From assembly GCA_016235085.1 (NCBI GenBank), contig JACRMA010000043.1, positions 7,327-71,326 of the forward strand: a DNA stretch of 64,000 nucleotides. The letters are read 5' to 3'. How positions within the stretch are numbered: the stretch's first letter is position 1; every line of letters begins with the position of its first letter. Positions 12,001-37,218 of this stretch are shown here, piece by piece. Under the pieces are notes generated by a model. It ran no database searches. It had not been told where the DNA came from and saw only the letters and a list, made by a program, of their open reading frames with translations. Source of the stretch: Candidatus Zixiibacteriota bacterium. Its GTDB lineage: Bacteria; Zixibacteria; MSB-5A5; WJJR01. A program made the translations under genes and the position numbers.

Positions 12001-12325
12001 ACCGGCACCCGATTCGTGTTGGTCACGGTGATGGCGACAACTTCGGAATCCGCCAGCGTTCCATCGCTCGCGATAAACGTGACGTTGATGACTCCGGCCT
12101 GCGTGTAGTCCGGATTGAAGACAAACGAACCGGCTCCATTGAGCGAATCGACGAAGGTCGAATTGAGCGGCGCACCAACGACGGTGAATGTCGGTGTCGT
12201 GCCATCGGCGTCGGTGGCATGCGTGCGGAAGGTGAGATTGGCGCCCTCCGCCACGGCCTGGGCGCGAATAGAGTCGAGAACCGGCGCCTGTCCGCCTGGG
12301 AATTGGATCGCAAACCAGGCAACGT
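1..12325. repeat. Tandem array of near-identical 279-bp coding repeats (~44 units), the body of the giant adhesin gene.
   Basis: Recurring blocks such as ttgaacacgaa.gaaccggc.ccgtt.agcgaatcgacgaa recur with 279-bp periodicity (for example plus-frame ORF starts at 10227 and 10506). Protein-level repeat identity is greater than 80%. Confidence 0.85.
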
Positions 12326-13460
12326 CGGCGGCCGAGCCTGTCCCGTCGCGCGTCACGCCCAGCGCGGTGGTGCTGGTCAAGTTGTGAGTGAAGGCGATTT
12401 CATCAAGACGGGAGGTGGAGGTGCCAGACCCCCCGCGCACATTAATGAGAGTGGCCGTGTTGGCAATTACGACCGGAGTCAGAGTTGCTGATCCGGTGGT
12501 GAGCGTGCTGCCAACCGCTATTGTCCCTGACTGCACGGTGGACGCATCGGTCAACGTCACGACTTCCCAGGCAACGTCCGCCGTGTTGGTTGTGGAGATA
12601 CGATCAAAGGTGAGCTGGGTTGCGGTCGTGATCCGGCCGCGAACGGAATATTGGGCTTCAATCCCATTTGTCGCAGCGGCACCGCGCCCGGACATGACGA
12701 GGAACGACTTGGCCAGATTGACTGATGTAATCGTGGCGGTAGCGGAACTGGCGCCCGAGGCAATCGTTGTCAGCCCGCGCTGGACCGATGCGCCAGTGTA
12801 CGAGACGACCTGCCAGTAGACATCGAGGGCGATCCCCGACTCGTTCCGGGTCAGTGCGAGATTGGTCGAGGTCGTCAATTGCGCGCGCACCGTCCACTGT
12901 TCATCAATCGTGCCACTCGCCGAGTTGGCTGCGACTGAAACCAGGACAAAGCTCTCGGCAAGATTCGCGGAAGTGATCGTCACGTTGACCGTCGTTGCGG
13001 CGGTCGAGAACGCAGCGGTGCCGCGCTGGACCGATACACCGGAAAGGAACTCGACCGCCTCCCAGTTGGCCGCGGTCGTTATCGCCGGAGAACCGAGACG
13101 TTGAAGATTGAGCGTTGTCCCGCTGGCGAGCTGGTAGCCGAAGCGGGTCGAATTGGCATTGGCGCTTGAGTTGCGTCCGCCGCCCCACTGAATCCCGCCC
13201 CAGACGATCGTCTTGGTGGCATCGACCGTGGTCAGAGTTACCGGGAGGGTATTCGCACCGGAAGTGAAAGTCGCGGTGCCGCGCTGAACCGATTTGATGA
13301 CCGCCGCGTGGACGGGATTGGCAGAGACGAGCAGGGCGAGAGCAGCAATCAAGAACAGAGCGCTCGCATTCACTCGGTACCCGGAACAACGCGAACCGCT
13401 GCGGAACGAAGATAGTCCCACAGTGGCCGTCGCCGCTTTCCTGATCGCCGGGGCGCGCAT
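1..13460 (-). CDS. Giant secreted tandem-repeat adhesin, 5' portion (N-terminal signal peptide at 13460; 3' end lies beyond the window start). Three ~100-aa 'VQRG' N-terminal repeats are followed by ~44 cadherin-like/He_PIG Ig-like 93-aa repeats. The reading frame is disrupted (see findings).
   Basis: Minus-strand ORFs 11313..13460, 5774..11506 and 625..5835 are contiguous pieces of one repeat-coding frame. N-terminus MRAPAIRK...ALFLIAALALLVSANPVHA is a signal peptide. The repeat unit ...PVLDSIRAKTVAENANLTFRTHATDPDGTIPTLTAVGVPLNATFVDSLNGAGSFVFNPDFTQSGV.NVTFI.SDGTLADSEVV.ITVTN.N... matches the He_PIG/dystroglycan-type cadherin-like pattern. Plus-strand ORFs in this span are antisense frames of the same repeat. 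Confidence 0.7.
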
Positions 13461-13503
13461 AGTTTGAATTGGCTCTGCGGGTTTCCCCGCAGAGCGTATT
13501 TCG

Positions 13504-16140
13504 CTACTTCATCAACACCATCTTCTTCGTTTCCGAATTGCCGCCGGTGGTCAGGCGATAGAAGTACAGCCCGCTGGCCATCGTTTGTCCGGCTTGATCA
13601 GTGCCATCCCATATGTATTCATATCGGCCGGGCCCCAGGGTCCCATCGAACAGGGTCTTCACCTGCTGGCCCAGGAGATTGTAGACGACGAGGTAGACGG
13701 CAACGGACGGACCGCTGCTGCCGAGATCGCCCAGAGTGAACGCAATCGTTGTGGTTGGGTTGAACGGATTCGGATAGTTCTGGTCCAGGACAAAGCTTCT
13801 CGGAACCGGACTGACTCCGGAAACTTCGATCTGGCTGGCGTCCGGCGCGGCGAGCTTAAGCTCCTGCAGGCGGACCGTTGGTTCGCCCAGTGCCGGCGCG
13901 GAAGACAACGGAATGCGCAACACATCATGCCGGCCGGTCCGCATGTTGGGTGGACCACCCATCAGATTAAAGAGGAGCGCGCGCAAGTGCCCCTGGCCAT
14001 CGTCACGGAACCGCAACTGCATGTTGGTCGCGACGGCAAGGGCCTCCGGAGAACCGAGTGTCACCGTCGCGGGATCGTAGGCCAGTTCGACTTGGGCGCC
14101 CGCGACGTCCGAAGGCAGATCGGCCGACAGGCGGAAGGCGCCGCTGGGACCATCGTTACGGTCATAAATGAACTGCACGGTGGCGGGTGTGCCACCCACA
14201 GGCGGCACTCCGGGAGCCGGAACCACCGGGGCGCCGAAGATGTGGTTGATAATCGCCTGGAGATCGAAGACGTCGACGAAATTGTCGGCGTTGGTATTCG
14301 CCGCGCCAAACTGTCTCGGGTTAAACGGGAATGTCCCGAGGATGTAACCGACGACCGTGACGATATCCGCGACGTCAATACGCGTGTCCAGGTTTGCATC
14401 GCCCAGATTGTCGACCATGATGACGCCGTCGGTGGTCGCGATCGATGCAGAAGGCTCGGTGGGATCGGGATCGATCGAACCCCAGGCATCTTCGAACATC
14501 ACCGGGTAGGCGCCCGGTGCAACCGCTGGATTGATCGAACCAATCACATTGAATAGAACGGTTGTTGTTCCGTTCGCCACCGACTGGCCGGTCAGTGAGA
14601 AAGCGACGATGCGAATTCGTCCGGCGGTGGTTCCCATGTTGTCGTATACCGTGAATCCGATGAGTCTGTCGCTGGTTTGGATGGCGCTCGGTGTGAAGAT
14701 CGTGGCATCGTAGACAAAATCGAACTGAACACCGTAGGAAGCCTTCACATTCAGAAAGTTGATCGGAATCACCACTCCGCCCGTGCCGGGGACTCCGCCC
14801 TGCGCCTCCTGGCCGGGAGCAGACGTGGAGAACAAGCGATCAACCTGTACTTGATTGACCGTGATGGTCACGTTGCAGATAACGCTGAGATTATTCGCTG
14901 TGTCCTTGGCCTGGAATCCGACCGAGAAAATTCCGGACTGCGTGAAGCTGGGCGTCCATTTGAACGTTCCGGACGCCGAACCGGTCCCGCTGACCGGATT
15001 CGCGGGGAGCAGGGAATAACCCGTCGGCGCGTTCACGGGATACAATTGAATCGGATCATTATTGGCATCCGAAGCGCTGATGTTGAACGAGACTTCCTGT
15101 CCCTGATCGACCGTATAGCTGGTGTTTGACGGGCAGATCACCACCGGTGCCACGTTTCCGGTCGGCTGGGTCACCGTGATTGTGACATTGCAAAAACCGC
15201 TGGAGAGACCACCGGGTTGATCCGTCGCCTGGAAACTGACCGTGAAGTTTCCCGTCTGCGAGCTCGTCGGAACCCACGAGAAGTTTCCCGTCGCGGATCC
15301 CGTACCGACTACCGGGTTTGAGGGCGAAAACGATGCGCCGGTTGGCAGGTTGGTCGCGAGGAGAGAAACTGTGTTTCCGTCGGGATCAGTCGCGGGAACA
15401 GCGAATTGCACCAACTGCCCGGCACTGACCGTCACAGGCGCAGGGCAACTTGTGATTGAAGGAGGGTTGTTCCCGCCTCCGGTGGTAATCGTGATCGTTC
15501 CATTGATGAGAACAGGACGCCAAATAAGCAAACCGCTGATTTGAGCAAAGGTGTTGTCCGTTTGCGGATAAACTGGGTCATTCTCAAATGCGATGCTGGC
15601 CGTCTGCGGGGACGCCGTGGACCGGATGAGCCAGCGCATACGAACCGTCGCTCCCGCACCCGGCAGGAAGATATCGGGAGCGGATTTTGGGGCCTGATCC
15701 AACGCGAGCAGTTTGTAGACACCCGATGACGGAAGGCCTTCCGACCAGATGTCCGCATCCATCGCAGGAGACACGGTGGAGAAAGCCGTGCCCCGGATTT
15801 CCGTTGAGCGCTCCGCGGCGATTACCGTGTCAACGCCTGTTATGACAGTATCCAGTAACGGCGAGATAACACTCGGGTCATAGCGAACGCGAAATGTGAA
15901 CGCTCCTAATGTGTCCGCGTTGCGAATGTACAGATCGACATTCACTGTATCGCCCGGGTGCGCGATGGTCACGTTCACGATCCGCATGGTGTCCAGGGTC
16001 GACGGAGTCTGTGCCCAGGCGGAGCCAGCCGATAGGAGCAGCGATGCCGCCGACACAATGGCAATGACCAGAATGATGCGGCACAGCCCTGACACGGGTC
16101 TTCCGCAGGATCTTTCTCGATTTGTTTTCATGGACTTCAT
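13504..16140 (-). CDS. T9SS-secreted modular scaffoldin-like protein: signal peptide, cohesin-like module, two He_PIG/Ig-like domains, second cohesin-like module, dockerin-like module, third cohesin-like module, Por/T9SS C-terminal sorting domain.
   Basis: ORF 13504..16230 with the likely start at ATG 16140 (MKSMKTNRE..., signal peptide ...LLSAGSAWAQ). Cohesin-like signatures: GDTVNVDLYIRNADTLGAFTFRVRYDPSVISPLLDTV, GVQFDFVYDATIFTP, AGAQVELAYDPATVTL. Dockerin-like pair: GDANLDTRIDVADIVTVVGYILG / NTNADNFVDVFDLQAIINHIFG. C-terminus LDQNYPNPFNPTTTIAFTL...SGLYFYRLTTGGNSETKKMVLMK is a typical T9SS CTD. Confidence 0.75.
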   Translation of the reverse strand: MKSMKTNRERSCGRPVSGLCRIILVIAIVSAASLLLSAGSAWAQTPSTLDTMRIVNVTIAHPGDTVNVDLYIRNADTLGAFTFRVRYDPSVISPLLDTVITGVDTVIAAERSTEIRGTAFSTVSPAMDADIWSEGLPSSGVYKLLALDQAPKSAPDIFLPGAGATVRMRWLIRSTASPQTASIAFENDPVYPQTDNTFAQISGLLIWRPVLINGTITITTGGGNNPPSITSCPAPVTVSAGQLVQFAVPATDPDGNTVSLLATNLPTGASFSPSNPVVGTGSATGNFSWVPTSSQTGNFTVSFQATDQPGGLSSGFCNVTITVTQPTGNVAPVVICPSNTSYTVDQGQEVSFNISASDANNDPIQLYPVNAPTGYSLLPANPVSGTGSASGTFKWTPSFTQSGIFSVGFQAKDTANNLSVICNVTITVNQVQVDRLFSTSAPGQEAQGGVPGTGGVVIPINFLNVKASYGVQFDFVYDATIFTPSAIQTSDRLIGFTVYDNMGTTAGRIRIVAFSLTGQSVANGTTTVLFNVIGSINPAVAPGAYPVMFEDAWGSIDPDPTEPSASIATTDGVIMVDNLGDANLDTRIDVADIVTVVGYILGTFPFNPRQFGAANTNADNFVDVFDLQAIINHIFGAPVVPAPGVPPVGGTPATVQFIYDRNDGPSGAFRLSADLPSDVAGAQVELAYDPATVTLGSPEALAVATNMQLRFRDDGQGHLRALLFNLMGGPPNMRTGRHDVLRIPLSSAPALGEPTVRLQELKLAAPDASQIEVSGVSPVPRSFVLDQNYPNPFNPTTTIAFTLGDLGSSGPSVAVYLVVYNLLGQQVKTLFDGTLGPGRYEYIWDGTDQAGQTMASGLYFYRLTTGGNSETKKMVLMK

Positions 16141-16866
16141 TGAGAAGCCCCCTTTCGGGACGGTTAATATGCCTGCAAGGTCTTGCATACTTTCGACTTC
16201 GTCATGGTCAGCCATTCTCTGCACCTGCATGTGGCTTCACCACATTCCGCACTGCATCCGTCGTCGCTGGCCGCCGCGCATCGCTTGGCGGTCAACAGGT
16301 TAGCCCCACTCTTCGGGGCCTCCGGGGAGGGGGGCATCCGGGCAATGACAGGCGGCGTTCAAACCGTTCGCAGTAAGTGCATTGCGGATTCCTGCTTCGC
16401 CAAGGCTTCGCAGGATTTAGGTGGAATGGCGTTCCGCGCCGGAGCCGATCACCGTCCTTTCGCGATGTGGGGGTGGGGTGAAAGTGGACAAAGCGGACGA
16501 GGTGGACGAAGTGGACGAGGACCAAGAGGCAAGTGTCGTCACACGCGTGGGCTCGCCGGCGACCGGGTGGACTGTGTCCACTGGGCGGGTGGGCTCAAGC
16601 TTGTGGCGAACAATGGTGGTCACTGGGCATCCTCTCTATCAACAAAAAACCCCGTCGCGAACAGATCATGCGCCCTAAACTGGGCGCAGCGGGCGGGGAT
16701 CAGCAGTACTTCAAGCAGCATAACTTGTTTCGACCTGCATTTGCTCCTGCCCGCCTGATTGACGGCAGGGGCGGCTTCATCGTTCTCAGTTGTGCAGTCT
16801 TTGTTCCTCCTCTCGTCCGCCTGGCACGCCGTTCCGTCGGCGCCTCGCATTTCTTGGTAAGCAGAT

Positions 16867-16894
16867 CCCGTCCCGTCCAAAAGGACGGGACGGG
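16867..16894 (-). terminator. Perfect 12-bp stem / 4-nt loop hairpin (CCCGTCCCGTCC-AAAA-GGACGGGACGGG) 20 nt downstream of the stop of the 16914..19862 gene; candidate transcription terminator without a U-tract.
   Basis: The inverted repeat is read directly from the sequence and sits immediately 3' of a stop codon. The lack of a U-rich tail lowers confidence. Confidence 0.45.
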
Positions 16895-16913
16895 ATTGCG
16901 TGAACTACAGACT

Positions 16914-19862
16914 TTACTTCATCAGCACCATCTTCTTGGTGGCGGTGAAGTCCTTGGCAGTCAGGCGATAGAAGTACATACCGCTGGCAACCGAGGAGCC
17001 GTTCTCGGAGCTGCCATCCCACGACACGCTCACAGGACCCTGGCCGTTACCGGAGAAGGTACGGACAACCTGACCCGCGATGTTGTAGATGGACAGATTC
17101 CAATCAGACTGGTCCTTCAAGGAGAACTGGATCACCGTGCCCGCGTTGAACGGGTTCGGGTAGTTCTGCAGGAGGGCGTAGCTGGTCGGGACTCTCGAGG
17201 AGGCGTTGACGGACAGAAGCGCACCGCTGGCATCCGACACCTGGGACTCAGCAAGCTCGACCGTGCCGTTGCCGGAGACCGGAACGGTGATCAGGTTGTT
17301 GAGACCAGCCGGGACCTTGGCACCCGCCGCAGTTCCGTAAACCAGAATGCGGAGTTCGCCGTTGGCCGAGGTGGACTTGACCTGGAGGTTGGTGCCCGAC
17401 ACGAGCGAGGGCTGGCCAACCGTCACGCCAGAGTAGTGGTACACGAACAGGGCACCGCCGAGATCGACGTTGGCGTTCGTGCGGATGTTCAACGTACCGT
17501 TGGTCACGTCAGAATTGACGGCCACCGAGTTGGCATAGGGCGACAGCTTGAAGCCCGAGCCCTGCGGCGGGAACGGCTGTGCGTCACCGGTGATGATGCG
17601 AATGAGGTACACCAGATCGGCGACGGTCAGAGGCATGCCATCGTTGTTGATGTCGCTGGCAAGAACCTGAACCGCACGCAGGTTGGCGTTGGACTCAAAC
17701 ACGTTGATGCCGGAGATGAAGTAGCGGCTGTACAGGACCGCGTCGCCGATTTCGTTGGCCACGCCGTTCAAGTTGAGGTCGCCACGATCATCGGGCGGAC
17801 GCTGGATGCAAATCGCACCTGAGCAGAAGTCGATGAACGGATTGACTTCGTGACCCGGCTTGTTGTTGCCGACACAGGTCCAATCCGGGCCCAGGGTGAT
17901 GTCAGGATCGGTCGTGGAAGGAACGTACAGCGTGTAACCGTCCTTGGACGACAGCGAGTTGTCGGTGCAGTCGAACGAGCAGAAGCCAACATGCGGACAG
18001 AGGCCGATGTTGTTGAGGTTGCCGTCTACCTGGAACGTGATCAGGGCAATCACACCGCCGAGGACAAACGCGCCCGGAGCGGGGGTGATGCCGTTGTTGA
18101 TGTCGGCAATACCGACGATCTTCACGTAGCCATTCGGGCATCCACCGCCGCAATTGCCGCCGAAGGCGCCAGTGCGATAGGTGAAATACTCGAAGGACGG
18201 ATCAAGGTTCGGACCACGGGCAACCTTCGAGAAGATCAGGATGCTTTGATCGTAGCAGATCAGGAATTCAAAGCCGCCTGTGCCGCCTGAAGGACCGGTT
18301 GCCGGGTTGACCCAGATACCGAGGGTCTTTTGCACGCCATAAAGGGACGGCGCGTAGGTCACAATGTGCCCGATGGCGGCGGAATCCGGATCCACGATGC
18401 AGATCTGATACGGGGATTCGAACAGCACGTCGACGCAGCACGGAGCCGAGGTGACACAACCATCAAAAGCGGTGAAGCACACGCTGTAAGGCGTGTTGTC
18501 GCCGGACGGACGAGCGCCGACGATCTGGTTGCCGGAGATGCTGAGCCATGACGGCCAAGTACCGGACGCGGCATAAGTCAGGGCATCGCCGTCAGCCTGG
18601 CTGGCCGGGCCCATGGTGATCGAGAGGGGCACGCCAGTCGGGGCGGTCACGGGAGCCGGATTCGAGCAGGTTGCCGGATCGTTGGTGACGGACAAGGTGA
18701 AGTTGCAAGTGGCCGATCCGCCAGTCGCATCCTGCACGGTGACGGTGATCGCATGGTCGCCGACTTGCTGGCAGTTGGACTCGTCTGTCCACACGCCATT
18801 CACATCGACGGAACCAGGAGCACCACCACTGAAGGTGTAAGGCGGGCAACCGCCGGTCACGCCGATCGTCTTGGAGGCAAGCTCGCCCCAATGGACGGAG
18901 ACGTTACCGCAGTTGCTGGTTACTGGAGCGGTTCCAGCCACATCAACGTGGAACGTGGCGGTGCCGCAATTGCCTTGACCGTTGGAATTGTAAACTTCGA
19001 ACACCACGTCAAAGCCGGGGTAGTCGGCGCATGTCGGGGTGTATGACCAGGTACCAGCACCAGCCGGCGGGCCAGGAGTTGTCGTGGAGACAACACCGGG
19101 GCCAGAGATCTTGGCGAAGGTATTGGCTTCGTCGTCCGAGGAAGAAAGAGCCTTGGACGCCGCGACGCCAACCGTCGCACTCACGGTAGCCAGATTGGTG
19201 GTGTTGGTCGGGCACGGGTTGCAAATGACATTGACGACGCCCTTGTTGAATACCGCAACGATCGGCGGTGTGCCGGAGGCTCTCACGAAAACAAAGTGAT
19301 TTGCCGGATCGGCGCAAGCGGTGTCAATCTCGAACGACCCGGGACAAATCGGGTTCGTCCCGGCGTTGATTGTGAACGAGGGCGAGGTGCCATCCGTACC
19401 GGCTGGCAGAGTCGCTCCAAGGATGATACCACGAACGATCATCATTCCAGCCGGAGACGAGCTAACCGGCATGGTGCTCACATCAAGACCTTCGTCTCCA
19501 GTAGACGGAGTCGCATCAGGACCCGGCCAAATCGTGCCGAATCCCGTGCCGCACGCGGCCGCATCGGGAGCCTGATAACCGTTGTAGATCATGACATCGG
19601 CGAGCTTGCCATTCATACGGCCCGAATTGACAGTGAGACCCAGGCTTGTGATGAATGATCCACCGCTAACGGTACGAATAGTCAACGGCGCGATGATGTA
19701 CTTGAGGGCCAGGTCGTTGGTGACGAACACACCGATGTTGGCAGTGCCACCAGCCCCGATCGTGAGCGACTCGACGGTCATTTGGTTGGCCGCAAAGATC
19801 GCCGCACTCGACAGGAAAACCAAACAGGCTGCCAGGCAAATTGTTAATGCAAAACGCTTCAT
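16914..19862 (-). CDS. T9SS-secreted large surface protein: signal peptide, Cys-rich regions, at least one cohesin-like module, a dockerin-like module and a Por/T9SS C-terminal sorting domain.
   Basis: ORF 16914..19925 with the likely start at ATG 19862 (MKRFALTICLAACLVFLSSAAIFA), preceded by GGAG 8 nt upstream. Cohesin-like GFEFLICYDQSILIFSKV. Dockerin-like DLNLNGVANEIGDAVLYSRYF...DINNDGMPLTVADLVYLIRIITG. C-terminus LLQNYPNPFNAGTVIQFSL...SGMYFYRLTAKDFTATKKMVLMK. Confidence 0.75.
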   Translation of the reverse strand: MKRFALTICLAACLVFLSSAAIFAANQMTVESLTIGAGGTANIGVFVTNDLALKYIIAPLTIRTVSGGSFITSLGLTVNSGRMNGKLADVMIYNGYQAPDAAACGTGFGTIWPGPDATPSTGDEGLDVSTMPVSSSPAGMMIVRGIILGATLPAGTDGTSPSFTINAGTNPICPGSFEIDTACADPANHFVFVRASGTPPIVAVFNKGVVNVICNPCPTNTTNLATVSATVGVAASKALSSSDDEANTFAKISGPGVVSTTTPGPPAGAGTWSYTPTCADYPGFDVVFEVYNSNGQGNCGTATFHVDVAGTAPVTSNCGNVSVHWGELASKTIGVTGGCPPYTFSGGAPGSVDVNGVWTDESNCQQVGDHAITVTVQDATGGSATCNFTLSVTNDPATCSNPAPVTAPTGVPLSITMGPASQADGDALTYAASGTWPSWLSISGNQIVGARPSGDNTPYSVCFTAFDGCVTSAPCCVDVLFESPYQICIVDPDSAAIGHIVTYAPSLYGVQKTLGIWVNPATGPSGGTGGFEFLICYDQSILIFSKVARGPNLDPSFEYFTYRTGAFGGNCGGGCPNGYVKIVGIADINNGITPAPGAFVLGGVIALITFQVDGNLNNIGLCPHVGFCSFDCTDNSLSSKDGYTLYVPSTTDPDITLGPDWTCVGNNKPGHEVNPFIDFCSGAICIQRPPDDRGDLNLNGVANEIGDAVLYSRYFISGINVFESNANLRAVQVLASDINNDGMPLTVADLVYLIRIITGDAQPFPPQGSGFKLSPYANSVAVNSDVTNGTLNIRTNANVDLGGALFVYHYSGVTVGQPSLVSGTNLQVKSTSANGELRILVYGTAAGAKVPAGLNNLITVPVSGNGTVELAESQVSDASGALLSVNASSRVPTSYALLQNYPNPFNAGTVIQFSLKDQSDWNLSIYNIAGQVVRTFSGNGQGPVSVSWDGSSENGSSVASGMYFYRLTAKDFTATKKMVLMK

Positions 19863-21511
19863 CTGTTTTGCTCCTTTAAAATTCCTCTCAGTTGACGTTT
19901 TCGAACTCCCCAAAGAGAGACACATTCTGTCGGGGAATCCACGCGATAGTCATTCCCCCTGATTTCGCGCTGAGCATTTGCTTTGTGCCTCAATACCGAT
20001 TTTCTCTAAACCTCACCTCCGTAGATGTCTAAATCGTTCACGGTTTCTGTTGGTTGAAGCGAGCGTTTAAAGACTCTTCGTTCGCAACACCTCCTTTCAC
20101 CGAAAATTGGTTGGGTTGATGGTTAACAACATCAATCATGGTTTTCAATCCCAGCCGGCGGCACAAGAGCGTGGGGCACCGGCGATTTTTTCAACAGAGG
20201 CTTGGGGCCCAAACGCCCGAAACACAGACACGAAAAGCGGCCGCATCAAGACACGGAGTCTCGACACCCAACCGCGTGCAGGACAAGAAACTCGAAGAAA
20301 TGTAAGGCGTGTGGACCATTCACGACCTCCCAATTCGCGTTTCCACTGTCACTTGCGTTCACCGAAGATCCTCTCAGGAGACATTCCCACACCGGGCCAC
20401 GCTCGTGAGCCGAATCGTCCGACTGCTGTCTGCCTTTCCATTTCCCGCTGCGAGCGGGTTGGTGAACTTGTCCGCGAACTTCGCGGTGTGACCTTGGTGG
20501 TTACTGCGCTTGCCGCCTCAGACCATGACTTCAATCCGTCCGACCAGCGCCGCCACCCGAGACTCTTGTAGAACTACCTGTGTTTCAGCTTTGTACCATA
20601 TCGCATGTGGTAACATCACTTGGCGAACTGAATATAGACCCCACCCCCCGATCTGTCAATACCCTAAATGGTTTTTTTTCTCTCATTTGTTGCATCAGCA
20701 GACCGGGCAAATCTGCTTGGGATGACAAGGAGTTAACGTGCGTGACAGTTTGGTGGAAGCGGGACCACCGCGCCTGCGGCGGGGGGCGGGCTGACGGGGA
20801 GGTCCCAACCGCAATACGATCCGCAGACGGGCGACCTCTGATCTACATAAGGTGAGGTCTGATTTTGACAGCCAGTTGAAGTTCTCAGAATTTGAATGGG
20901 GCGGGTTGCGGAGACAAGGTCCAGCTCACGCAATGGCGTGTTGTCAGACAGTGCCTCGTGAATTCGAGGCCGCATCAAGTTGTCCCACCTCCCACTTTCA
21001 CAGTCCGGGAAGAGGCCTGAATCTCGTCTGCGATTTCATCCTGTGCGCTCTCAAGTCGTTGATCCACAACACAATCTACTTCTCCATCCCGTGCGCACAT
21101 CACCTCCTCAGCAGGTGGGACTTTAGGAGCGGCGGGACCTCATGAGACCATCGGAACGGATGATGATCTGGAGAAGAAAGCGGACGATTATGGCGTGGCG
21201 GTAGAAGCGGAAGGGTGGTCTCAAGGGTGATCGTCCTTAAACCGGCGACCGCGCCTTAACCGACGGCATCCATTGGCTTCTTGACGAGGGATGCCCATGG
21301 GAAGCACCGGACGCAGTATGAGCAATTGTCCCCCCGGGGGATCGTATCTCGAAATGTAGTGATTCGGCAATACTACAAGGCCCCGCCACCCATGTTGGTC
21401 CCCGGCTCTTCGGTGGATTCTGGGATCCAACATGACGCGACGAGGGCGGAGAGTCAATCCCCCCACCCTCATCAACGCCAGGAACGAAAACTCGCTGCAA
21501 TCCCTAAGTGC

Positions 21512-22255
21512 TCAGCACGGAGGCTGTCCGTTGTTGAAGACGTACTCAATCAAGTAGATCAGGTCGAAGATGTCCGCCACATCATCGCAGTTGACATCGG
21601 CGAGCGTGGGCGGGCATGACGGACCATTATTGAAGAGATAGTCCTGAAGCGCGGTTATGTCAAATATGTCTGTGACCTGGTCTTGGTTTAAGTCGCCTCG
21701 GGAGGTCGGGCGCACCGTTACGCTCCCGCTGGTCCAGTCCACAGGTGAAATGAATGAGAAGGTGGGCGTCATGAACCAACTGCCAACGCCACCGGCCGTG
21801 AAGGAAACAGTACGATCTTGAAGGGTATCCGCCCAAGCGTCTGGACAGACCGTGTGGACAAGCAATTTGATCAAATTGCCGGATGTGTAGGCGGGAATGG
21901 CGGTTCCGTAACCGGTGATTTGTATGGCCGCGGGGCTGTAATATTGCAACCCCACAGACCAGCTGGCAGTCAGAGTTCCCGCACTGCTCCAGATCGCGAT
22001 TGAATCCCAGTAAGCCAGGTCGGGCCGACTCATGGTAACCAGGAGTTGAAAATATTCAATTGGCTCGTCCATGTTCTGAATGAAGACGGTAATGGTATCC
22101 TGCACATTCCAACCAGAGGTGGTATCACCTAGATCGACGTAAACCTTAGGGGTTTGCGCCCACAGAGATTTTGCACTCCCAGGGAAAGACGCGACGACAA
22201 TGCTGGTCATAAGCAGCAGAACACCACTCCAAACCTTCCGCCGATAGTTCTCCAT
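21512..22255 (-). CDS. Small secreted dockerin-domain protein (signal peptide plus ~150-aa unknown domain plus C-terminal double dockerin-like repeat).
   Basis: N-terminus MENYRRKVWSGVLLLMTSIVVASFPGSAKSLWAQ is a signal peptide. C-terminus DLNQDQVTDIFDITALQDYLFNNGPSCPP...DVNCDDVADIFDLIYLIEYVFNNGQPPC. AGGAGG lies 8 nt upstream of the ATG. The gene is lower-GC than its surroundings. Confidence 0.6.
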   Translation of the reverse strand: MENYRRKVWSGVLLLMTSIVVASFPGSAKSLWAQTPKVYVDLGDTTSGWNVQDTITVFIQNMDEPIEYFQLLVTMSRPDLAYWDSIAIWSSAGTLTASWSVGLQYYSPAAIQITGYGTAIPAYTSGNLIKLLVHTVCPDAWADTLQDRTVSFTAGGVGSWFMTPTFSFISPVDWTSGSVTVRPTSRGDLNQDQVTDIFDITALQDYLFNNGPSCPPTLADVNCDDVADIFDLIYLIEYVFNNGQPPC

Positions 22256-29656: not shown

Positions 29657-31612
29657 TCAGGTGCCTGGGAGTTGCTTCTTCACCACATTCTCGGCCCCAC
29701 CGGCCACTACAAGTTCCTGTGCGACAGTGCTTAAAGGCGAAAACGGGAAATCGCGTCCGTCGCACTTGATCATCGACTTCTGGTAGTCCACATCGAGTGT
29801 CGGGCCGACGATGGTCGGGGCCTTGTCGTCACGGAACGTCTCGCGCAGGAAATCGACGAGAGTCGGGCACTCAAATACCACAAAGCCATTGTTGAAGGCG
29901 TTGCGCTTGTAAGTCTCGTTGAACGATGCGGCAATGACACACTGAATGCCGCGATAGTCGAGGGCAGTCGCGGCCTGTTCGCGCGAGGAACCCGTGCCAA
30001 AGTTGCGACCGGCGACAATGATGTCGCCCTTGACGGCGATAGCCTGGAAATTCGGGTCGTAGTTGAGCATGCAGGCGGCGGCCATCTCGTCACGTGTGAG
30101 ATTGTCTTTATAGGTAAAGGCGCCACCGTAGATGCCATCGGTATTGAGGTTGTCGACCGGCAGCCAGAGAGCACGGCCGTGAATGGCGGCCGGGAAACCG
30201 GCGACAATCTCGACCGGTTTCGCGGGACGCGGCGGGGCCGTATGCACGACCGCAGTGGATTGGCCGGTGATGTTCTCGAACCGTGTGGGCGATGCAATGT
30301 AACCGGCGATAGCCGAGGCGGCCACGACCGCGGGGCTGCCCAGATAGACCTGCGCATCGCGATGACCCATGCGTCCCTTGAAATTGCGGTTGGTGGCGCT
30401 TATGCCGACCTCGCCGGCGTCGAGCGTCCCCTCCCCCAACCCGATGCACGGTCCACAGCCGGATGGCAGCATGATGGCGCCGGCAGCCGAGAGCGACTGC
30501 CAATGGCCGGCCTCTTCCGCCTGCTTCTGGATATTCGCCGACGCGGCGGCGACATAGAATTTTACACCCTCGGCGACCTTCTTCCCTTTGACGATCTGCG
30601 CGGCTTCGGCCAGGTCCTCGAAGCGGGCGTTCACACAACTCAGCAGGTAGGCTTTGTGGATCTGAACCTTCTTCGCTTCGATCTCGGGAAGGGCAACCAT
30701 GGTCTTGACGTGATTCGGTCCGGAGACATGGGGGATCACGGTAGACAAATCCAGCGTCAGATCGATGGCATAGTGAGCGTCGGAATCCGCCATCGTCCGA
30801 TGCGTGTACCACTCATCAACTTTGGCCCGATTGTAGCGCGGTGTTCCACGTGACACAAGGAAATCTGCCCGCCCGTAAAGATAGTCGCGCAAGACAGTGT
30901 CGAACGGGAAGATGCCGGCGAGCGCGCCCCACTCGGTCGTCATGTTGGCAATGCTCATGCGCTGGTCCATCGACATGCCGGCGATTCCATCGCCGTTGAA
31001 CTCGATGGCCATGTTGAGTACTTCATCATGATTGAATAGACCGCAGAGTGCGATGATCACATCCTTGCCGACCACGCCGGGGCGCAATTCTCCGGACAGC
31101 GTCACACGCGCGACCGGCGGCACTTGCCACCAGGTCTGCCCGGTCGCCCAGATTGCGGCGGCGTCGGTGCGCACAACCGGAGTGCCGAGAGCGGCGGCGG
31201 CGCCATAGAGATTGGAATGAGAGTCGCTGCCGACTACCATGCTGCCCGGCGTCACGTAACCATACTCGACCATCACCTGATGGCTGATCCCGGTTCCGGC
31301 CGGGTAGAAATCGATGCCGTGCTGTTTGGCGAAGGCCTCGATCTTGGCGTACTTCGCCAGATTATCGGGTGTGGTGTTTTGGATGTCGTGGTCGATCGCA
31401 AACACCGGTTGGCGGGGGTCGGCAACCCTGGCAGCGCCAATCGACTTGAACTTGCTCATCACCGCGCTGGTGTTGTCGTGGGTCATGATGTGTTTGGGGC
31501 GGATACGAATAAAGTCTCCGGATACGACCTTCTCCCCTGGCTTCAGTCCCACAGCGTGGGCGGTCGCGAGCTTTTCGACTACTGTTTGACCCATGTCAAT
31601 ACCCCGTTCCAC
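29657..31612 (-). CDS. Aconitase-family hydro-lyase, fused large plus small subunit (LeuC/LeuD-type; 3-isopropylmalate/homoaconitate/aconitate hydratase).
   Basis: [15 protein letters not shown]...[11 protein letters not shown]...large-subunit region and a C-terminal LeuD-like swivel domain ([15 protein letters not shown]). Possible alternative start at ATG 31594. Confidence 0.8.
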
Positions 31613-31646: not shown

Positions 31647-32180
31647 TCAACCGCCAACGAGTTCGAAGTCGATGAAATCAGCGTGGTGGAGGACGATTCC
31701 CTCCGGTGTACGCTTGCCGCCGGCGGCTTCTTTGGAGTGCATCGCCACCACGTGAATCACGGATTCGGGAAGCCCCTGCTCCCAACAGAGTCCTACACCG
31801 CTGAACGGATGGCGGAGCAGACGGCCGTGCTCACTCTTGACGAATTGGCCGTCTTTCTTGGTAAACTCCAGCACTTTGCCGACGTCGGCGAGCATTGCGC
31901 CCGCAACCAGGATATCGCGGTCGACCACGTTGCGGTCACCGTAGGCCTTCTGCAACACATCCCAGCAGGCGATGCACATTTTGCACACGGTGCGCACGTG
32001 TTCCACGAAGGTCACGTTGACATTGGAAACCAGCAGCGTAAACGGCATGGTGCGCAGGTCGTCGTAGGATAGTGTGCTGCGCTTCATTGCGGCGGTCCAG
32101 GTCGCGGCGGTCTTGCTGCGCAGGGTCGCGTCCTTGATTTCGTTGATCTCGGGAAAGATGGAGAGGATTTCGTCGGGCAT
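31647..32180 (-). CDS. HD-domain-like protein; the canonical HD dyad appears degenerate (LADVGK instead of LHDIGK).
   Basis: Pattern H..R...(x)...ADVGK...H...H resembles HD/HDOD phosphohydrolase folds. The match is weak. Confidence 0.35.
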   Translation of the reverse strand: MPDEILSIFPEINEIKDATLRSKTAATWTAAMKRSTLSYDDLRTMPFTLLVSNVNVTFVEHVRTVCKMCIACWDVLQKAYGDRNVVDRDILVAGAMLADVGKVLEFTKKDGQFVKSEHGRLLRHPFSGVGLCWEQGLPESVIHVVAMHSKEAAGGKRTPEGIVLHHADFIDFELVGG

Positions 32181-32468: not shown

Positions 32469-33248
32469 TCATTTAAGGTGGCGGATGGCTGGACCGTCGT
32501 AGGTCGTATCAGTCGGGTGAATCTGGCGCATTGGTTTTTGACGGGTTCGCTCTTCATGGGCATGCGCCACCAAACCGGGCAGACGCGCAATCATGAAGAA
32601 CGCATTCGCCAGGGCGGGCGGCACGTTCAGGTCGAGCAATACCGCTGCAATCGCACCGTCGACATTGAGGGGCAGCGGCTTTCCGGTCACCTTGGCAATG
32701 GTCGTCTCGAGCGCCCGCGCCATCGCCAGTCCGTCTTTCGCCTTGCCAAGGTCGTCGACCAGTTGCAGCAAGCGCGTCGTTCGGGGGTCTTTGGTGTGCA
32801 GGCGATGGCCAAACCCTGGCAAGCGCGCTCCGCGTGCCTTGTAGCTATCAAATGTGGCGAGGGCGGCATCTTCGAACGACAGGCCCTTGCTCTTTGCCGC
32901 AGCCACCGCTTCACTGATTGCCTTCATCGAATCTTCGATGGCGCCGCCGTGGAATTTGGAAATCGAGAGAATGCCGGCGGCAACCGCCGCACCGAGCGGC
33001 GCACCGGTCGAGGCGACGGTGACGGTTGAGAGGACAGATGGCGGCGAGGTGCCATGGTCCACCGATGAGACAAAGATCGCGTTGAGGATGGTGGCGGTCG
33101 CGGGATCAGGAAGTTCGCCAAGGAGGGCCAGATGGATGGCTTCGGCGAAGCTGATCTTGCCCATCAACTCTTCGACCGGGTATCCGCGGAGGCGGATGAC
33201 ATTGGGGCCGATCTCGGTAATTGCGGATGACCAGTTCATGTCGCCCAT
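32469..33248 (-). CDS. ccl: Short citrate-synthase-like protein, candidate citryl-CoA lyase.
   Basis: 259 aa carrying the citrate-synthase family motif GFGHRLHTKDPR and resembling the C-terminal citrate-synthase-like domain of ATP-citrate lyase. It lies immediately downstream of a succinyl-CoA-synthetase-like pair. AGGAG lies 6 nt upstream. Confidence 0.65.
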   Translation of the reverse strand: MGDMNWSSAITEIGPNVIRLRGYPVEELMGKISFAEAIHLALLGELPDPATATILNAIFVSSVDHGTSPPSVLSTVTVASTGAPLGAAVAAGILSISKFHGGAIEDSMKAISEAVAAAKSKGLSFEDAALATFDSYKARGARLPGFGHRLHTKDPRTTRLLQLVDDLGKAKDGLAMARALETTIAKVTGKPLPLNVDGAIAAVLLDLNVPPALANAFFMIARLPGLVAHAHEERTRQKPMRQIHPTDTTYDGPAIRHLK

Positions 33249-33286: not shown

Positions 33287-34213
33287 CTACTCGATTATGG
33301 GAATCTTCGCGGTCTCCATCGGCCGGATGATCGTCTTCACCGCGTCCGGGATATCGCCGAAGTTGTCGACGACCGTAGCACCGACTTCACGCAGACGCTT
33401 GACCTTGCCGTCGTGCGTGCCCCGGTCGCCTTCAATGATGGCACCGGCGTGGGAGAAGCGCGTTCCCGACTGCGCCCCTTTGCCGCCGATATACGCGACC
33501 AGTGGTTTGGTGAATTTGCCTGATGCGATGAGGTCGGCAACGCGTTCTTCCTGTGAGGTGCCGATTTCGCCAAACATCACGACGCAATCGGTATCGGGGT
33601 CCGATTCGAACAACTCCATGACCGCCGGATGATCGGTACCGATGATCCCATCGCCGCCGACATGGATGATGGTTGATAGCCCGATTCCGGCGCGCGAGAG
33701 GTAATACGCAATTGATGATGTGATACCACCGGAACGAGAGGTCACGCCCACGCGCCCGGGAAGGAACCAATCCTTTGCCGAAGAGGCCGATCCGCCGATC
33801 ATGCCGAATACCGCCCGGCCGGGTGACAGGAGTCCCAGCGTATTGGGACCGATGAAACGGGCACCGGCATCCTTGGCGGCAGCGGCGATCTCTAGAACAT
33901 CATAAATTGGGACACGGTCGGGCACGATTACGAGGAGTTTGATCCCCGCTGCGATGGCTTCGAGAGCCGCGTTCTTCACCAGCGGCGCGGGGACGAAGAT
34001 CGTGGAGACATCGATGGAACCCATCTTCTCGACAGCTTCCATGACGGTATCGAAGACCGGCACACCCAGGACATCCTGTCCCCCTTTGGCGGGTGTGCAG
34101 CCGGCGACAACCCGGGTGCCGTAGCGCTGCATGAGCTGGGTGCGCGCCATCCCCTCGCGGCCGGTGATGCCCTGCACAATGACTGTCTTGGTTTCGTCGA
34201 CGAGGATGCTCAT
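33287..34213 (-). CDS. ccsB: Succinyl-CoA synthetase alpha-like CoA-binding subunit (candidate citryl-CoA synthetase small subunit).
   Basis: VIVQGITGREG...TPAKGG...phosphohistidine loop RFSHAGAIIEG. Confidence 0.75.
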   Translation of the reverse strand: MSILVDETKTVIVQGITGREGMARTQLMQRYGTRVVAGCTPAKGGQDVLGVPVFDTVMEAVEKMGSIDVSTIFVPAPLVKNAALEAIAAGIKLLVIVPDRVPIYDVLEIAAAAKDAGARFIGPNTLGLLSPGRAVFGMIGGSASSAKDWFLPGRVGVTSRSGGITSSIAYYLSRAGIGLSTIIHVGGDGIIGTDHPAVMELFESDPDTDCVVMFGEIGTSQEERVADLIASGKFTKPLVAYIGGKGAQSGTRFSHAGAIIEGDRGTHDGKVKRLREVGATVVDNFGDIPDAVKTIIRPMETAKIPIIE

Positions 34214-34277: not shown

Positions 34278-35840
34278 CTAAGCCCCCATTATCTTTGCGC
34301 GGTATTCTTCCAGTCCGGGGATCGGGAGGATTACCCGGCCACCGGAATTGCCGCCGATACGGCACTCGACTTCGCACGCCAGACATTCGATGCACTTACC
34401 GGCTTTGGCGTCCTCTCGTGAGATGTTCAGGACAACAACGCCATCCTGATTCTTGAGGATTTGCGGCACACAGGTCTGAACGCAGCTCTTGGTCTGGCAC
34501 TCGCGGCACAGTGCGTGATCGAGCACGACTTTCCCGGTTGGTGTTTCAAACGAGTATGGATCTTTGGCGGTAAAGTCCGGAGTGACCGGCAGGGCCATCT
34601 GGCGCGGGGCGGCTTTGTCCGGTTGCGCCTCGAGCAGTTTCTGCATGCGCTGGGCGCAGAAATCAGCTGTGTCGTCCTTCTTGTAACCTTCCACCGGAGC
34701 CGGGAGATTCTTCGTGTATTCGGTGAGAATCTGGATCGCCTTGTCCTCACCATTGCCGCCAAGCCGGATCACGGCGGGAATCGAGAGATTCTCCTCCCAA
34801 AACGCCTTGACCAGGCCGCGTGCCGAATGGAACTGCTCCTGCGACGCAACACCCGAACCGGAACCGAAGTAGCCATCGATGTTGGGCTGGGAGAGAATAA
34901 TCTTGGCGGCACGATAGACCTTGGATGCCGGCGGATTTCCGGAGGTGTCGGTGAAATTGGCGATCGTGTACCCGCGTTTCACCAGTGCATCCATCGACAT
35001 CATCGAGCCGCCTCCGCCCGCACCATGGAAGCCGATGAATCCTTCGCCCTTCTTGTAGCCGCGCGCCATTTCAATGAAGTAGAAGGTGCCCCGGTAATCG
35101 TCCTTCTCGACAGACCAGGCGATCTTGTCCAGGGCGGTTGGCGGCCGGCCGAATTCACGGGCGATTTCGATTTTGAGCTCAGGATGGCGGAAGACCGCGC
35201 TGTCATCGACAGTGATCCGGCAGTCGCAGGCGACGAGCTTGCCATCGCCACGGAGCACAAGCGGATTGATCTCCGCCGAGCGGGCTTCCCATTGGCGGGC
35301 AACGCGATAGAGTGTCAGCAATGCCTTCGTCAACTCGTTTTGCAACGAGCCGGTCACACCGGTCTTGCGCACCGCCTCGCGCGCTTCGTACTCGCGCAGG
35401 CCGAAGCGCACATCAACCGGAGTCTTGGAAACATTCTTCGGGTATTTGCGCGCCAACTCCTCTATTCCGGAGCCACCGATGGAAGAGAAGATCACGACGG
35501 GGGTCTTGTTGGCATCATCGACGACGATGCCGGCGTAGAATTCACGGTTGATGTCGACCTTTTCTTCGATCAGGACTTCGGTGACATCGAAGCCGCCGAT
35601 CTTCAACGAAAGCATTCGTGCCGCCGCGGCGGTGACGTCACCAGCGTTGTCGGCGATGGCAATGGCGCCCTGAGCCGCTCGGGATGTGGTCCAGGCCTGC
35701 GCTTTGACCACGGCGGGAAGTCCACTGATTGCCAGGGCCGCCGGGACCTCACCTTGCGAGCGGACGACCTGCCCTTTGGGGACAGCAAATCCTGCTTCCC
35801 TTAGGAGCTGTTTGCCGTGATATTCGTGTAGACGCGCCAT
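34278..35840 (-). CDS. ccsA: Succinyl-CoA synthetase beta-like ATP-grasp subunit (candidate citryl-CoA synthetase large subunit) with a C-terminal 2x[4Fe-4S] ferredoxin domain.
   Basis: N-terminus MARLHEYHGKQLLREAGFAVPKG (SucC-like ATP-grasp). The C-terminal ~100 aa carry CRECQTKSCVQTC...CIECLACEVEC, two CxxCxxCxxxC clusters. Start at ATG 35840 with AAGGTGA upstream. Confidence 0.75.
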   Translation of the reverse strand: MARLHEYHGKQLLREAGFAVPKGQVVRSQGEVPAALAISGLPAVVKAQAWTTSRAAQGAIAIADNAGDVTAAAARMLSLKIGGFDVTEVLIEEKVDINREFYAGIVVDDANKTPVVIFSSIGGSGIEELARKYPKNVSKTPVDVRFGLREYEAREAVRKTGVTGSLQNELTKALLTLYRVARQWEARSAEINPLVLRGDGKLVACDCRITVDDSAVFRHPELKIEIAREFGRPPTALDKIAWSVEKDDYRGTFYFIEMARGYKKGEGFIGFHGAGGGGSMMSMDALVKRGYTIANFTDTSGNPPASKVYRAAKIILSQPNIDGYFGSGSGVASQEQFHSARGLVKAFWEENLSIPAVIRLGGNGEDKAIQILTEYTKNLPAPVEGYKKDDTADFCAQRMQKLLEAQPDKAAPRQMALPVTPDFTAKDPYSFETPTGKVVLDHALCRECQTKSCVQTCVPQILKNQDGVVVLNISREDAKAGKCIECLACEVECRIGGNSGGRVILPIPGLEEYRAKIMGA

Positions 35841-36099
35841 AATCACCTTCGACCGGTTGGTTGCCCGGCCGGGCGAGCCAATATCACAGTGGCACAGTGC
35901 GTTGTCAACCATGGTCCGACCGACCCGTTGTAATCGAACCACATTCTGACATCGAAGGTCAACGAGTCTGTGACTGTAGCGCACCGGCCGTGTGTGATTG
36001 ACCTACATTTTGTCCGAACCCAGCCGATTTCACTTGTCCAAGCCGGCAAACTCCGGCAATACTTGCGCCCGACTCAACCGATAGGAAGGAGAACCTACA

Positions 36100-37218
36100 A
36101 TGGCCAAGTATAAGATTGCGTGGATGCCTGGAGACGGGATCGGCAAGGATGTTCTGGATGCGGCACGGGTTGTGCTCGATTCGCTCAAACTTGACGCGGA
36201 CTACATTAACGCGGATATCGGCTGGGAGTTCTGGTGCGAGGAGGGCAATCCGCTCCCCGAGCGTACGCTGAAGATTCTGCGGGAAACCAGGTGTGCCCTC
36301 TTTGGCGCGATTACATCGAAACCCAAGGAGGAGGCCGAGGCCGAACTGGCAGCGTCGCTCAAAGGAAAAGGATTGAAATACTCCTCCCCGATTGTGGGTT
36401 TGCGGCAGGCGTTCAACCTGCACACGAATCTTCGTCCCTGCAAGGCGTACCCCGGCAATCCGCTCAACTATCGCGACGACATCGACCTGGTTGTCTTCCG
36501 GGAGAACACCGAGGATTTGTACGCCGGCGTGGAATTTCATCCGGTGGCCGACGATCTGCGCGCCAAGCTGATCGAGCACAACAAAAGCATGAAGAAGTTC
36601 GACAAGGTCAAGGCCGAAGACCTTGCGATCTCTTGCCGGATCATCACCAGACCGGCGAGCCGCACGATTGTGACCTCGGCATTTGAGTACGCCAAGAAGT
36701 ACAGGTATCCGTCAGTGACACTGGTGGAGAAGCCCAACGTACTGCGCGAGACCTCGGGCCTGATCACCCGTACCGCCCGGGAAGTGGCGAAGGGGTACCC
36801 CGGCATCCAATTCTATGAAGCCAACATTGACGCGATGTGCATGTGGTTGATCAAGAACCCCAAAGATTACGGTGTGATGGTAACCTCGAACATGTTCGGC
36901 GACATCATTTCCGATCTGTGCGCACAGTTGGTGGGGGGGCTTGGGTTTGCGTCATCGGGGAATATCGGCGACAACTACGCTGTGTTCGAACCGACCCACG
37001 GTTCGGCGCCGAAGTACGCCGGCATGTACAAGGTCAATCCGATGGCCACGATTCTCACGGTCAAGTTGATGCTCGATTGGCTCGGCGAGACAGTCATGTC
37101 ATCACGTTTGGAGAAGGCAATTGCCAAGGTCATCAAGGACGGCAAGGTCCGGACGTACGACATGGGCGGCAGCAACACGACGCTCGAGGTGGCCGAGGCG
37201 GTGGCGAAGGCGCTGTAG
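36100..37218 (+). CDS. Isocitrate/isopropylmalate dehydrogenase family (beta-decarboxylating dehydrogenase).
   Basis: MAKYKIAWMPGDGIGKDVL N-terminal motif and family-wide similarity. AAGGAG SD upstream. Subfamily (ICDH, LeuB or homoisocitrate DH) not resolved. Confidence 0.8.
   Translation: MAKYKIAWMPGDGIGKDVLDAARVVLDSLKLDADYINADIGWEFWCEEGNPLPERTLKILRETRCALFGAITSKPKEEAEAELAASLKGKGLKYSSPIVGLRQAFNLHTNLRPCKAYPGNPLNYRDDIDLVVFRENTEDLYAGVEFHPVADDLRAKLIEHNKSMKKFDKVKAEDLAISCRIITRPASRTIVTSAFEYAKKYRYPSVTLVEKPNVLRETSGLITRTAREVAKGYPGIQFYEANIDAMCMWLIKNPKDYGVMVTSNMFGDIISDLCAQLVGGLGFASSGNIGDNYAVFEPTHGSAPKYAGMYKVNPMATILTVKLMLDWLGETVMSSRLEKAIAKVIKDGKVRTYDMGGSNTTLEVAEAVAKAL

Follow-up and report, generated by a model that had tools for sequence, protein, structure and literature searches.

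A ferredoxin-like C-terminal domain on the large subunit of a succinyl-CoA synthetase-like ligase encoded beside citryl-CoA lyase in a Zixibacteria contig

Why should the large subunit of an acid-CoA ligase end in two cysteine motifs of the kind that hold iron-sulfur (Fe-S) clusters? The question is raised by a gene in a 64,000-nucleotide stretch of a Candidatus Zixiibacteriota contig (JACRMA010000043.1, positions 7,327 to 71,326 of the forward strand, assembly GCA_016235085.1; hereafter the window). The gene, here called beta-Fd (34278..35840, reverse strand; open reading frame (ORF) and translation), encodes a 520-amino acid (aa) large (beta) subunit of an ADP-forming acid-CoA ligase resembling succinyl-CoA synthetase (SCS) and citryl-CoA synthetase (CCS), followed by a C-terminal ferredoxin-like domain. 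SCS, CCS and ATP-citrate lyase (ACL) are textbook redox-neutral enzymes, and to our knowledge none of them carries Fe-S clusters. A preliminary description of the window, made from its sequence, had noted a C-terminal di-cluster ferredoxin-type domain fused to an SCS-beta/CcsA-like subunit, and had raised redox sensing or electron transfer as its possible functions. We find that the fusion is genuine and widespread, that the tail has the ligand pattern and predicted fold of a di-cluster ferredoxin, and that it probably serves the ligase as an accessory module.

A single reading frame joins the ligase core and the ferredoxin-like domain

Both Cys motifs lie in one unbroken frame with the ATP-grasp/SCS-beta core, and the linker between core and tail is free of stop codons. 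The segment first singled out, 34278-34590, takes in aa ~418-520 and the stop codon (34278-34280); the translation terminates in DHALCRECQTKSCVQTCVPQILKNQDGVVVLNISREDAKAGKCIECLACEVECRIGGNSGGRVILPIPGLEEYRAKIMGA, and a longer stretch of it reads LCRECQTKSCVQTCVPQILKNQDGVVVLNISREDAKAGKCIECLACEVECRIGG and continues to a final IMGA before the stop. The two motifs of the preliminary description, CxxCxxxxCxxxC and CxxCxxCxxxC, are found in the translation at C445-C457 and C483-C493, and the fusion that it proposed is borne out by the continuous frame, the conserved Cys motifs and the predicted fold. The contrary case that it had envisaged, a ferredoxin segment encoded as a separate small gene, does not hold for this locus, where the frame is single and uninterrupted.

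The ORF listed by program, 34278..35984 (reverse strand), extends 48 codons too far, up to a GTG at 35984. The true start is the ATG at 35840 rather than this upstream GTG, because homologues all open with MARLHEY, a ribosome-binding site (AAGGTGA, 35843-35849, reverse strand) precedes the ATG and a promoter-like match lies upstream of it (sigma70-like, TTGACA-17-GATATT, 35908..35880, reverse strand); the last two elements are consensus matches only.

A protein search returned 5590 matches at E<=1e-10, including thousands of homologues of ~510-520 aa with a query coverage of 98-100%, and a second record, from a Zixibacteria metagenome-assembled genome, holds a 520-aa protein 100% identical to beta-Fd. 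Where the preliminary description had proposed looking for the same architecture in databases, a scan in which a single genome stood for each GTDB species detected it in abundance: at least 517 species representatives, mostly uncultured bacteria, encode a relative. These belong to Zixibacteria, Calditrichia/Caldithrix, KSB1, Marinimicrobia, many Anaerolineae, Acidobacteriota, Gemmatimonadota, Aminicenantes, Hydrothermota and Sumerlaeota. Locus checks were made on the best 80 of the at least 517 species; all 80 proteins align through residue ~510-519, all are fused, and 79 of these loci, each from a different GTDB species, show the full eight-Cys pattern. The eight Cys are likewise invariant in 72/72 homologues of 59-90% identity. 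Since the Cys are invariant in homologues, the fused form recurs in many species and the identical protein occurs in an independent record, the fusion is neither a chance arrangement nor a chimeric join. An assembly or annotation artefact, in which a chimeric join or a frameshift merged a separate ferredoxin gene onto sucC, could appeal to relatives in which the module is indeed a separate gene (see below), but the independent record, the 80 fused loci and the in-frame linker leave it a negligible probability.

A tail search over 1.84 billion cluster representatives gave only 116 at E<=1e-3, and the tail family thus recovered is almost private to the SCS-like ligase clade. To describe the architecture as novel, which had at first been raised as a possibility, is fair with respect to published knowledge but not with respect to sequence databases, where it is abundant. 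We found no solved structure or curated family describing a ferredoxin-tailed SCS-beta architecture, and the literature searched on CCS and on citryl-CoA lyase (CCL) describes no Fe-S or ferredoxin module on CcsA/SucC-type subunits (PMC5317091, PMC6137239, PMC5459899, PMC3578206, PMC13147460, PMC9560492, bioRxiv 10.64898/2026.09.02.748891).

Putative cysteine ligands and predicted fold of the tail

The ferredoxin-like domain (aa 428-520; 34281..34559, reverse strand) consists of an N-terminal beta-hairpin, a di-cluster core and a C-terminal helix. It is connected to the SCS-beta core by a variable linker (aa ~405-427; 34560..34628, reverse strand) that shows alignment gaps and no consensus and is predicted with low confidence (predicted local distance difference test, pLDDT, of 66 for aa 411-420). 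Motif 1, C445-x2-C448-x4-C453-x3-C457 followed by V-P (CRECQTKSCVQTC; 34470..34508, reverse strand), is invariant in three family alignments, and motif 2, C483-x2-C486-x2-C489-x3-C493 (CIECLACEVEC; 34362..34394, reverse strand), in two. The motifs, CX2CX4CX3C-V-P and CX2CX2CX3C, stand 25 residues apart, within the ~20-35 residues of the classical two-motif arrangement; the second spacer of motif 1 has 4 residues, giving CX4C instead of the classical CX2C.

The roles of the individual Cys can be read from their losses. When 233 tails from the searches were aligned to the family hidden Markov model (HMM) and the eight Cys positions were read, 176 retained all eight. In six representatives (P0170, P0172, P0158, P0159, P0161 and P0167) the first three Cys of motif 1 and the fourth of motif 2 are gone, whereas the fourth Cys of motif 1 and the first three of motif 2 are retained. 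In the canonical cross-ligated 2x[4Fe-4S] topology, the four Cys lost together are exactly the ligands of a single cluster, to which one motif contributes three Cys and the other its fourth. Because the pattern of loss follows a cross-ligation set, the Cys probably act as cluster ligands; this is the strongest sequence-level evidence for such a role. We infer that the tail most likely binds two cross-ligated [4Fe-4S] clusters, of which one would be held by Cys 445/448/453 and Cys 493, and the other by Cys 483/486/489 and Cys 457. About eight further representatives (among them P0235, P0193, P0210, P0233, P0230 and the near-full-length P0349) are left with only 2-3 of the Cys, yet the domain is still attached to the same beta core, so that the fold of the tail can persist without clusters.

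A search of full-length beta-Fd against Pfam reported no Fer4 family at E<0.01, and a search of the PDB with the tail sequence gave no meaningful match; a family profile and fold comparison were therefore used. The Fer4 check suggested in the preliminary description had a divided outcome: the tail alone matches Fer4_9 (E=1.2e-3 to 1.7e-3, 18.8-19.3 bits against a gathering score of 27) and Fer4_10 (17.3-17.9 bits against 25.5), but both matches are sub-gathering. Among 31 family tails, 21 match Fer4_9 at E<0.01, the best at E=8.9e-6. The family profile identified OorD of 2-oxoglutarate:acceptor oxidoreductase in the PDB (8ys5_D, E=2.9e-4), with three more matches at E<0.01, all weaker; all are Fe-S ferredoxin-type proteins. 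AlphaFold2 confidently modelled the full-length protein with a pLDDT of 90.8 and a predicted template modelling score (pTM) of 0.83, and the tail alone with a pLDDT of 95.9. Compared with solved di-cluster ferredoxins, the tail model has the ferredoxin (beta-alpha-beta)x2 fold, and it matches Fe-S ferredoxins only; RNA polymerase (RNAP) subunit D (2pa8_D) is among the fold matches. None of the solved SCS, CCS or ACL chains extends over the tail, the core aligning with them over ~405-425 columns only. In modelled fold and in ligand pattern, then, the tail appears to be a genuine bacterial-type di-cluster ferredoxin domain.

Alternatively, a Cys-rich domain of this kind might bind Zn or form disulfides. 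The sub-threshold Fer4 HMM scores and the existence of cluster-less tail variants would fit such a domain, and some ferredoxin-like domains do lack clusters, for example in some archaeal RNAP D subunits. However, the motif spacing is that of a classical di-cluster protein, the fold prediction leads to Fe-S ferredoxins alone, and the Cys losses track Fe-S cross-ligation sets, not Zn-finger pairs. We therefore regard Zn binding or disulfide formation as very improbable.

The host ligase, its operon and the separable module

The core of beta-Fd belongs to the SCS/CCS/ACL family but is not readily filed under any of its named members. Pfam places ATP-grasp_2 at aa 3-195 (E=1e-44); its Citrate_bind match at aa 267-321 is weak (25.7 bits against 26.8), but this domain (PF16114) is precomputed on most homologues. 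Scores against the SucC equivalogs of NCBIfam fall below both cut-offs (NF001913, 232.6 against 370; TIGR01016, 229.8 against 375.55), and NCBIfam has no model specific for the beta-Fd family. In the PDB the core is closest to Thermus SCS-beta (3ufx_B, 4.8e-57, 196.8 bits, TMt 0.87), ahead of Hydrogenobacter CcsA (6hxq_B, 1.2e-33, 119.7 bits, TMt 0.68). The small (alpha) subunit (308 aa; 33287..34213, reverse strand; Pfam CoA_binding, Ligase_CoA and Succ_CoA_lig) carries the phosphohistidine motif SHAGAI, likewise falls below the NCBIfam SucD cut-off (287.9 bits against 336) and matches SCS-alpha (4e-79) before CcsB (1e-46) in the PDB.

What defines CcsA (EC 6.2.1.18), namely ATP-grasp and SCS-beta C-terminal domains with a phosphohistidine-bearing small-subunit partner, is present, and the pairing with a citryl-CoA lyase is found too, by synteny only; beta-Fd is nevertheless not nearer to characterised CcsA than to SucC. 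An AclB assignment does not apply either, since AclB/ACLY is not the nearest relative (6hxj_A, 2.1e-24) and alpha and CCL are separate genes rather than fused. Because the ligase sequence is nearer to SucCD, we do not file beta-Fd as a CcsA orthologue, and the label 'citryl-CoA synthetase' would rest on the adjoining lyase. An ordinary SucCD was rejected as the main reading of the pair, given that both subunits score below the equivalog cut-offs and that CCL needs a partner which forms or consumes citryl-CoA. The annotations of homologues in the source records are correspondingly mixed: 'acetate--CoA ligase family', 'ATP-grasp domain-containing' and 'succinyl-CoA synthetase beta', with tail fragments named 'ferredoxin-like protein FixX'.

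The genes of the operon follow in the order beta-Fd, alpha, CCL, an HD protein and an aconitase-family hydratase, with an isocitrate dehydrogenase (IDH)-like gene divergent. CCL (259 aa; 32469..33248, reverse strand) has a truncated citrate-synthase fold and exceeds the cut-off of NCBIfam NF004869 (233 bits against 212); its catalytic His/His/Asp motifs are intact (KFHGG, GFGHRL, NVDGA), and in the PDB it matches Hydrogenobacter thermophilus CCL over its full length (6hxp_A, 3.7e-47) and citrate synthases at ~1e-16. CCL alone cannot release citrate, as is established for CCL and ACL. The adjoining ligase is therefore its natural partner in forming or consuming citryl-CoA, and we infer that it acts with CCL on citrate/citryl-CoA. 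Acting together, the ligase and CCL of the window would convert citrate + CoA + ATP into acetyl-CoA + oxaloacetate + ADP + Pi and back again.

Gene order was counted at the 48 of the 80 loci with enough downstream DNA. Alpha comes next after beta in 48/48 and the order beta-Fd, alpha, CCL is kept in 47/48. This contiguity could point to a scaffold that docks the lyase, the tail tethering the synthetase to CCL and channelling labile citryl-CoA in imitation of the covalent fusion of ATP-citrate lyase. The placement of the tail would suit this proposal, as it occupies the C-terminus of beta, at the point where ACLY, to which the core aligns, runs on into a linker; that domain order of ACLY is established. 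The proposal is weakened by stand-alone forms of the module (described below), which also accompany an HpcH/HpaI-type lyase of unrelated fold, and by loci with no lyase nearby, and a simple docking peptide would have no need of eight conserved Cys. We consider lyase docking quite unlikely.

Downstream of CCL lies the gene for an HD-domain protein (177 aa; 31647..32180, reverse strand; Pfam HD, E=6e-5), found after CCL in 36/48 loci and thus a fourth, conserved operon member; its canonical HD doublet is apparently replaced (GAMLADVGK). An aconitase-family hydratase is present in 33/48 loci; the fused one of the window (651 aa; 29657..31612, reverse strand; Pfam Aconitase and Aconitase_C) scores above the cut-off of NCBIfam TIGR00139 'homoaconitase' (743 bits against 530) and has the large subunit of Methanocaldococcus jannaschii homoaconitase (HACN) as its closest solved relative (4kp2, 5e-73). 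In other phyla a split LeuC/LeuD-like pair takes the place of the fused gene. The divergent isocitrate/homoisocitrate-dehydrogenase-like gene (372 aa; 36100..37218, forward strand; Pfam Iso_dh, 8e-85) lies near 27/48 loci, and its product is equidistant from NAD-IDH and homoisocitrate dehydrogenase (HICDH) in the PDB.

The 'homoaconitase' score had suggested that the operon might make 2-oxoadipate for lysine by the alpha-aminoadipate (AAA) pathway. This was not supported, as no lysine (AAA pathway) genes recur in the flanks of the 80 loci. Recurrent in the same flanks are PrpD, KorA/KorB, LipB, Lpd and HdrA-like genes. Because AAA genes are absent there but PrpD, KorAB, LipB and Lpd recur, the gene neighbourhoods favour a tricarboxylic acid (TCA)-type role on citrate. 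At 13 loci the IDH-like gene is followed by PrpD/MmgE, LipB and Lpd occur as neighbours at loci of KSB1, Calditrichia and Marinimicrobia, and in some Anaerolineae KorA/KorB-like and HdrA-like genes are placed directly upstream of the operon.

Some relatives have the module as a protein of its own. Such stand-alone modules are Met-initiated proteins of ~93-98 aa that span the entire tail, and their genes sit between those for a tail-less beta (412-420 aa) and alpha in four independent contexts: short contigs (L081-L083); a Desulfotomaculum-type cluster (L087, 5763-8180) with GntR, a TRAP transporter and a gene of the isocitrate lyase (ICL)/phosphoenolpyruvate (PEP)-mutase family, further holding a CCL-like gene, PrpD, a flavoprotein and fumarase; a cluster (L089, 5742-8174) in which an HpcH/HpaI C-C lyase accompanies two methylaspartate ammonia-lyases; and a fourth locus (L091, 5708-7748). 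Divergent fused versions (L084 and L085) occur within PrpD/aconitase/PrpF/GntR clusters. In stand-alone modules the first Cys of motif 2 is often replaced by Asp or Gly.

With a separate gene between beta and alpha, the ferredoxin-like unit is to be seen as a third component in an entire clade of SCS-like ligases that would use citrate-like acids; this strengthens its link to the ligase rather than refuting it. The lyase beside the module varies (CCL-like or HpcH-type) or is missing, and the ligase itself is therefore its most likely partner. Given the ligases that adjoin HpcH-type lyases, the module is not specific to citrate cleavage; to judge by their gene content, the stand-alone clusters may encode three-subunit ligases for acids like citramalate, mesaconate or methylcitrate.

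Elsewhere in the window, a run of giant surface-protein genes (625..19925, reverse strand) encodes proteins of 1736, 1910, 715 and 908 aa with cadherin-like, Big_9, PKD and cohesin repeats, as well as one of 1003 aa that bears a type IX secretion C-terminal sorting domain; the gene at 21512..22255 encodes a dockerin-containing protein. The run is consistent with an origin in the FCB superphylum (Zixibacteria).

Role of the module and comparison with known systems

On balance, and with moderate confidence, we favour the view that the tail is an Fe-S accessory module, non-catalytic and structural or else redox-/O2-responsive, on a distinct clade of SCS-like ADP-forming ligases. The substrates of this clade would be hydroxy- or branched di-/tricarboxylates. 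The module, fused to beta through a flexible linker as it is here or supplied as a third subunit of ~98 aa encoded between beta and alpha, would be an architectural element docked on the ligase, neither catalytic nor an obligatory electron carrier; in most lineages its clusters would make the stability or activity of the enzyme depend on Fe-S, oxygen or redox status. It is seen as non-catalytic and not as an obligatory carrier because ligase and lyase chemistry is redox-neutral and because, in a rare clade, the domain has outlasted the loss of most of its Cys. An architectural role is also favoured because no redox partner is encoded nearby, the window holding no redox enzyme near the beta-Fd gene.

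Several observations weigh against the accessory role. The closest structural relatives of the tail, PorD, OorD, FwdG and FixX, are electron-conduit subunits, which favours electron transfer, and genes of redox enzymes do adjoin the operon in places: 2-oxoacid:ferredoxin oxidoreductase genes (KorA/KorB-like) at five loci (L013, L027, L049, L062 and L079) and HdrA-like flavo-Fe-S genes in ~10 Anaerolineae loci. No Pfam Fer4 model attains its gathering score on the beta-Fd sequence; the best Foldseek matches of the tail are of ferredoxin type, yet their E-values are weak (>=0.075); and the cluster-less variants are rare metagenomic singletons. As for the ligase, its two subunits resemble SucCD more than Hydrogenobacter CcsAB, and with a hydratase that scores as 'homoaconitase' the operon may handle either citrate or homocitrate.

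These structural relatives and the occasional KorAB and HdrA neighbours are also what speaks for the main rival, in which the tail works as a tethered ferredoxin that takes electrons from, or passes them to, ferredoxin-dependent enzymes of its pathway (2-oxoglutarate:ferredoxin oxidoreductase, OGOR; pyruvate:ferredoxin oxidoreductase, PFOR; heterodisulfide reductase (Hdr)-like enzymes), forming a TCA/reductive TCA (rTCA) metabolon at the citrate node. However, no electrons move in the ligase and lyase reactions, most loci resemble the window in having no redox partner near the gene, the same module serves ligases of unrelated catabolic clusters, and one clade retains the domain without clusters. 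To attach a carrier to an abundant non-redox enzyme would also be an unusual design. We judge the electron-carrier role to be unlikely.

A bolder form of the accessory role, which we put forward only tentatively, would make the module a built-in redox/O2 gate on a reversible, ATP-coupled enzyme that forms or cleaves citrate. The clusters would equilibrate with oxygen or with the ferredoxin pool of the cell, and their oxidation state or integrity would switch the ligase on or off, setting oxidative flow (acetyl-CoA + oxaloacetate to citrate, with a gain of ATP) against reductive flow (citrate cleavage) in very many uncultured anaerobes. If such gating were true, redox-controlled acid-CoA ligases of three components (beta, Fd, alpha) would form a class of their own.

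A di-cluster module on a ligase clade found in hundreds of species would add a new cofactor-bearing component to the SCS/CCS/ACL family, and the tail hints at an ATP-dependent step at the citrate node that is tied to Fe-S or redox status, an unrecognised control point. In anaerobes the operon could also stand in for citrate synthase with conservation of ATP. There are consequences for marker-gene surveys as well. Because the annotations of the operon's ligase subunits read SucCD, 'ATP-grasp' or 'acetate-CoA ligase family', surveys of rTCA markers see ccl without ccsAB. A 2026 global carbon-fixation survey dropped ccl as an rTCA marker, having detected it far more often than ccsA and ccsB (bioRxiv 10.64898/2026.09.02.748891); a SucCD-like, ferredoxin-bearing partner family would explain this excess. 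Recognising the beta-Fd family would alter how the potential for citrate synthesis or cleavage is scored in metagenomes.

Among known systems, the closest parallel is CcsA/CcsB and Ccl of H. thermophilus (6hxq, 6hxp), where a two-subunit SCS-type ligase likewise stands beside a ~260-aa lyase with a truncated citrate-synthase fold. Unlike beta-Fd with its tail, H. thermophilus CcsA (429 aa) has no ferredoxin domain. CCS/CCL is known from Aquificaceae and Leptospirillum (PMC13147460; PMC3578206), whereas the beta-Fd family extends through many mostly heterotrophic or anaerobic uncultured phyla. The core is best matched by SucC/SucD, in sequence as in fold, and the alpha subunit shares the phosphohistidine motif; in contrast to SucC/SucD, the present subunits fail the equivalog cut-offs, show weak ACL-type Citrate_bind matches and a different C-terminal-domain motif (GSGSGVASQEQFHSARG), and come with ~120 additional aa (linker and ferredoxin domain) and with CCL as an obligate neighbour. 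ATP-citrate lyase (AclB/AclA; ACLY) is built from the same domain families and would share the overall chemistry if CCS and CCL act together, but here the components are unfused and the identity is lower, at ~19%, and ACL has no Fe-S domain.

The ferredoxin-type relatives of the tail differ from it in their setting. PorD/OorD delta subunits, FwdG, FixX and PsaC wire a redox active site, whereas the host of the beta-Fd tail has none; moreover, motif 1 of beta-Fd has CX4C for CX2C, and its sequence family is nearly private to SCS-like ligases. A better conceptual analogue is subunit D of Sulfolobus RNAP, a ferredoxin-like Fe-S module on a non-redox enzyme, to which the tail has no sequence relationship and from which its own role could be argued by analogy only. 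The N-terminal 2x[4Fe-4S] domain of ABCE1 and Bacillus subtilis PurF, neither of which has sequence kinship to the tail, are further instances of Fe-S modules with a structural, mechanical or O2-sensing role on non-redox enzymes.

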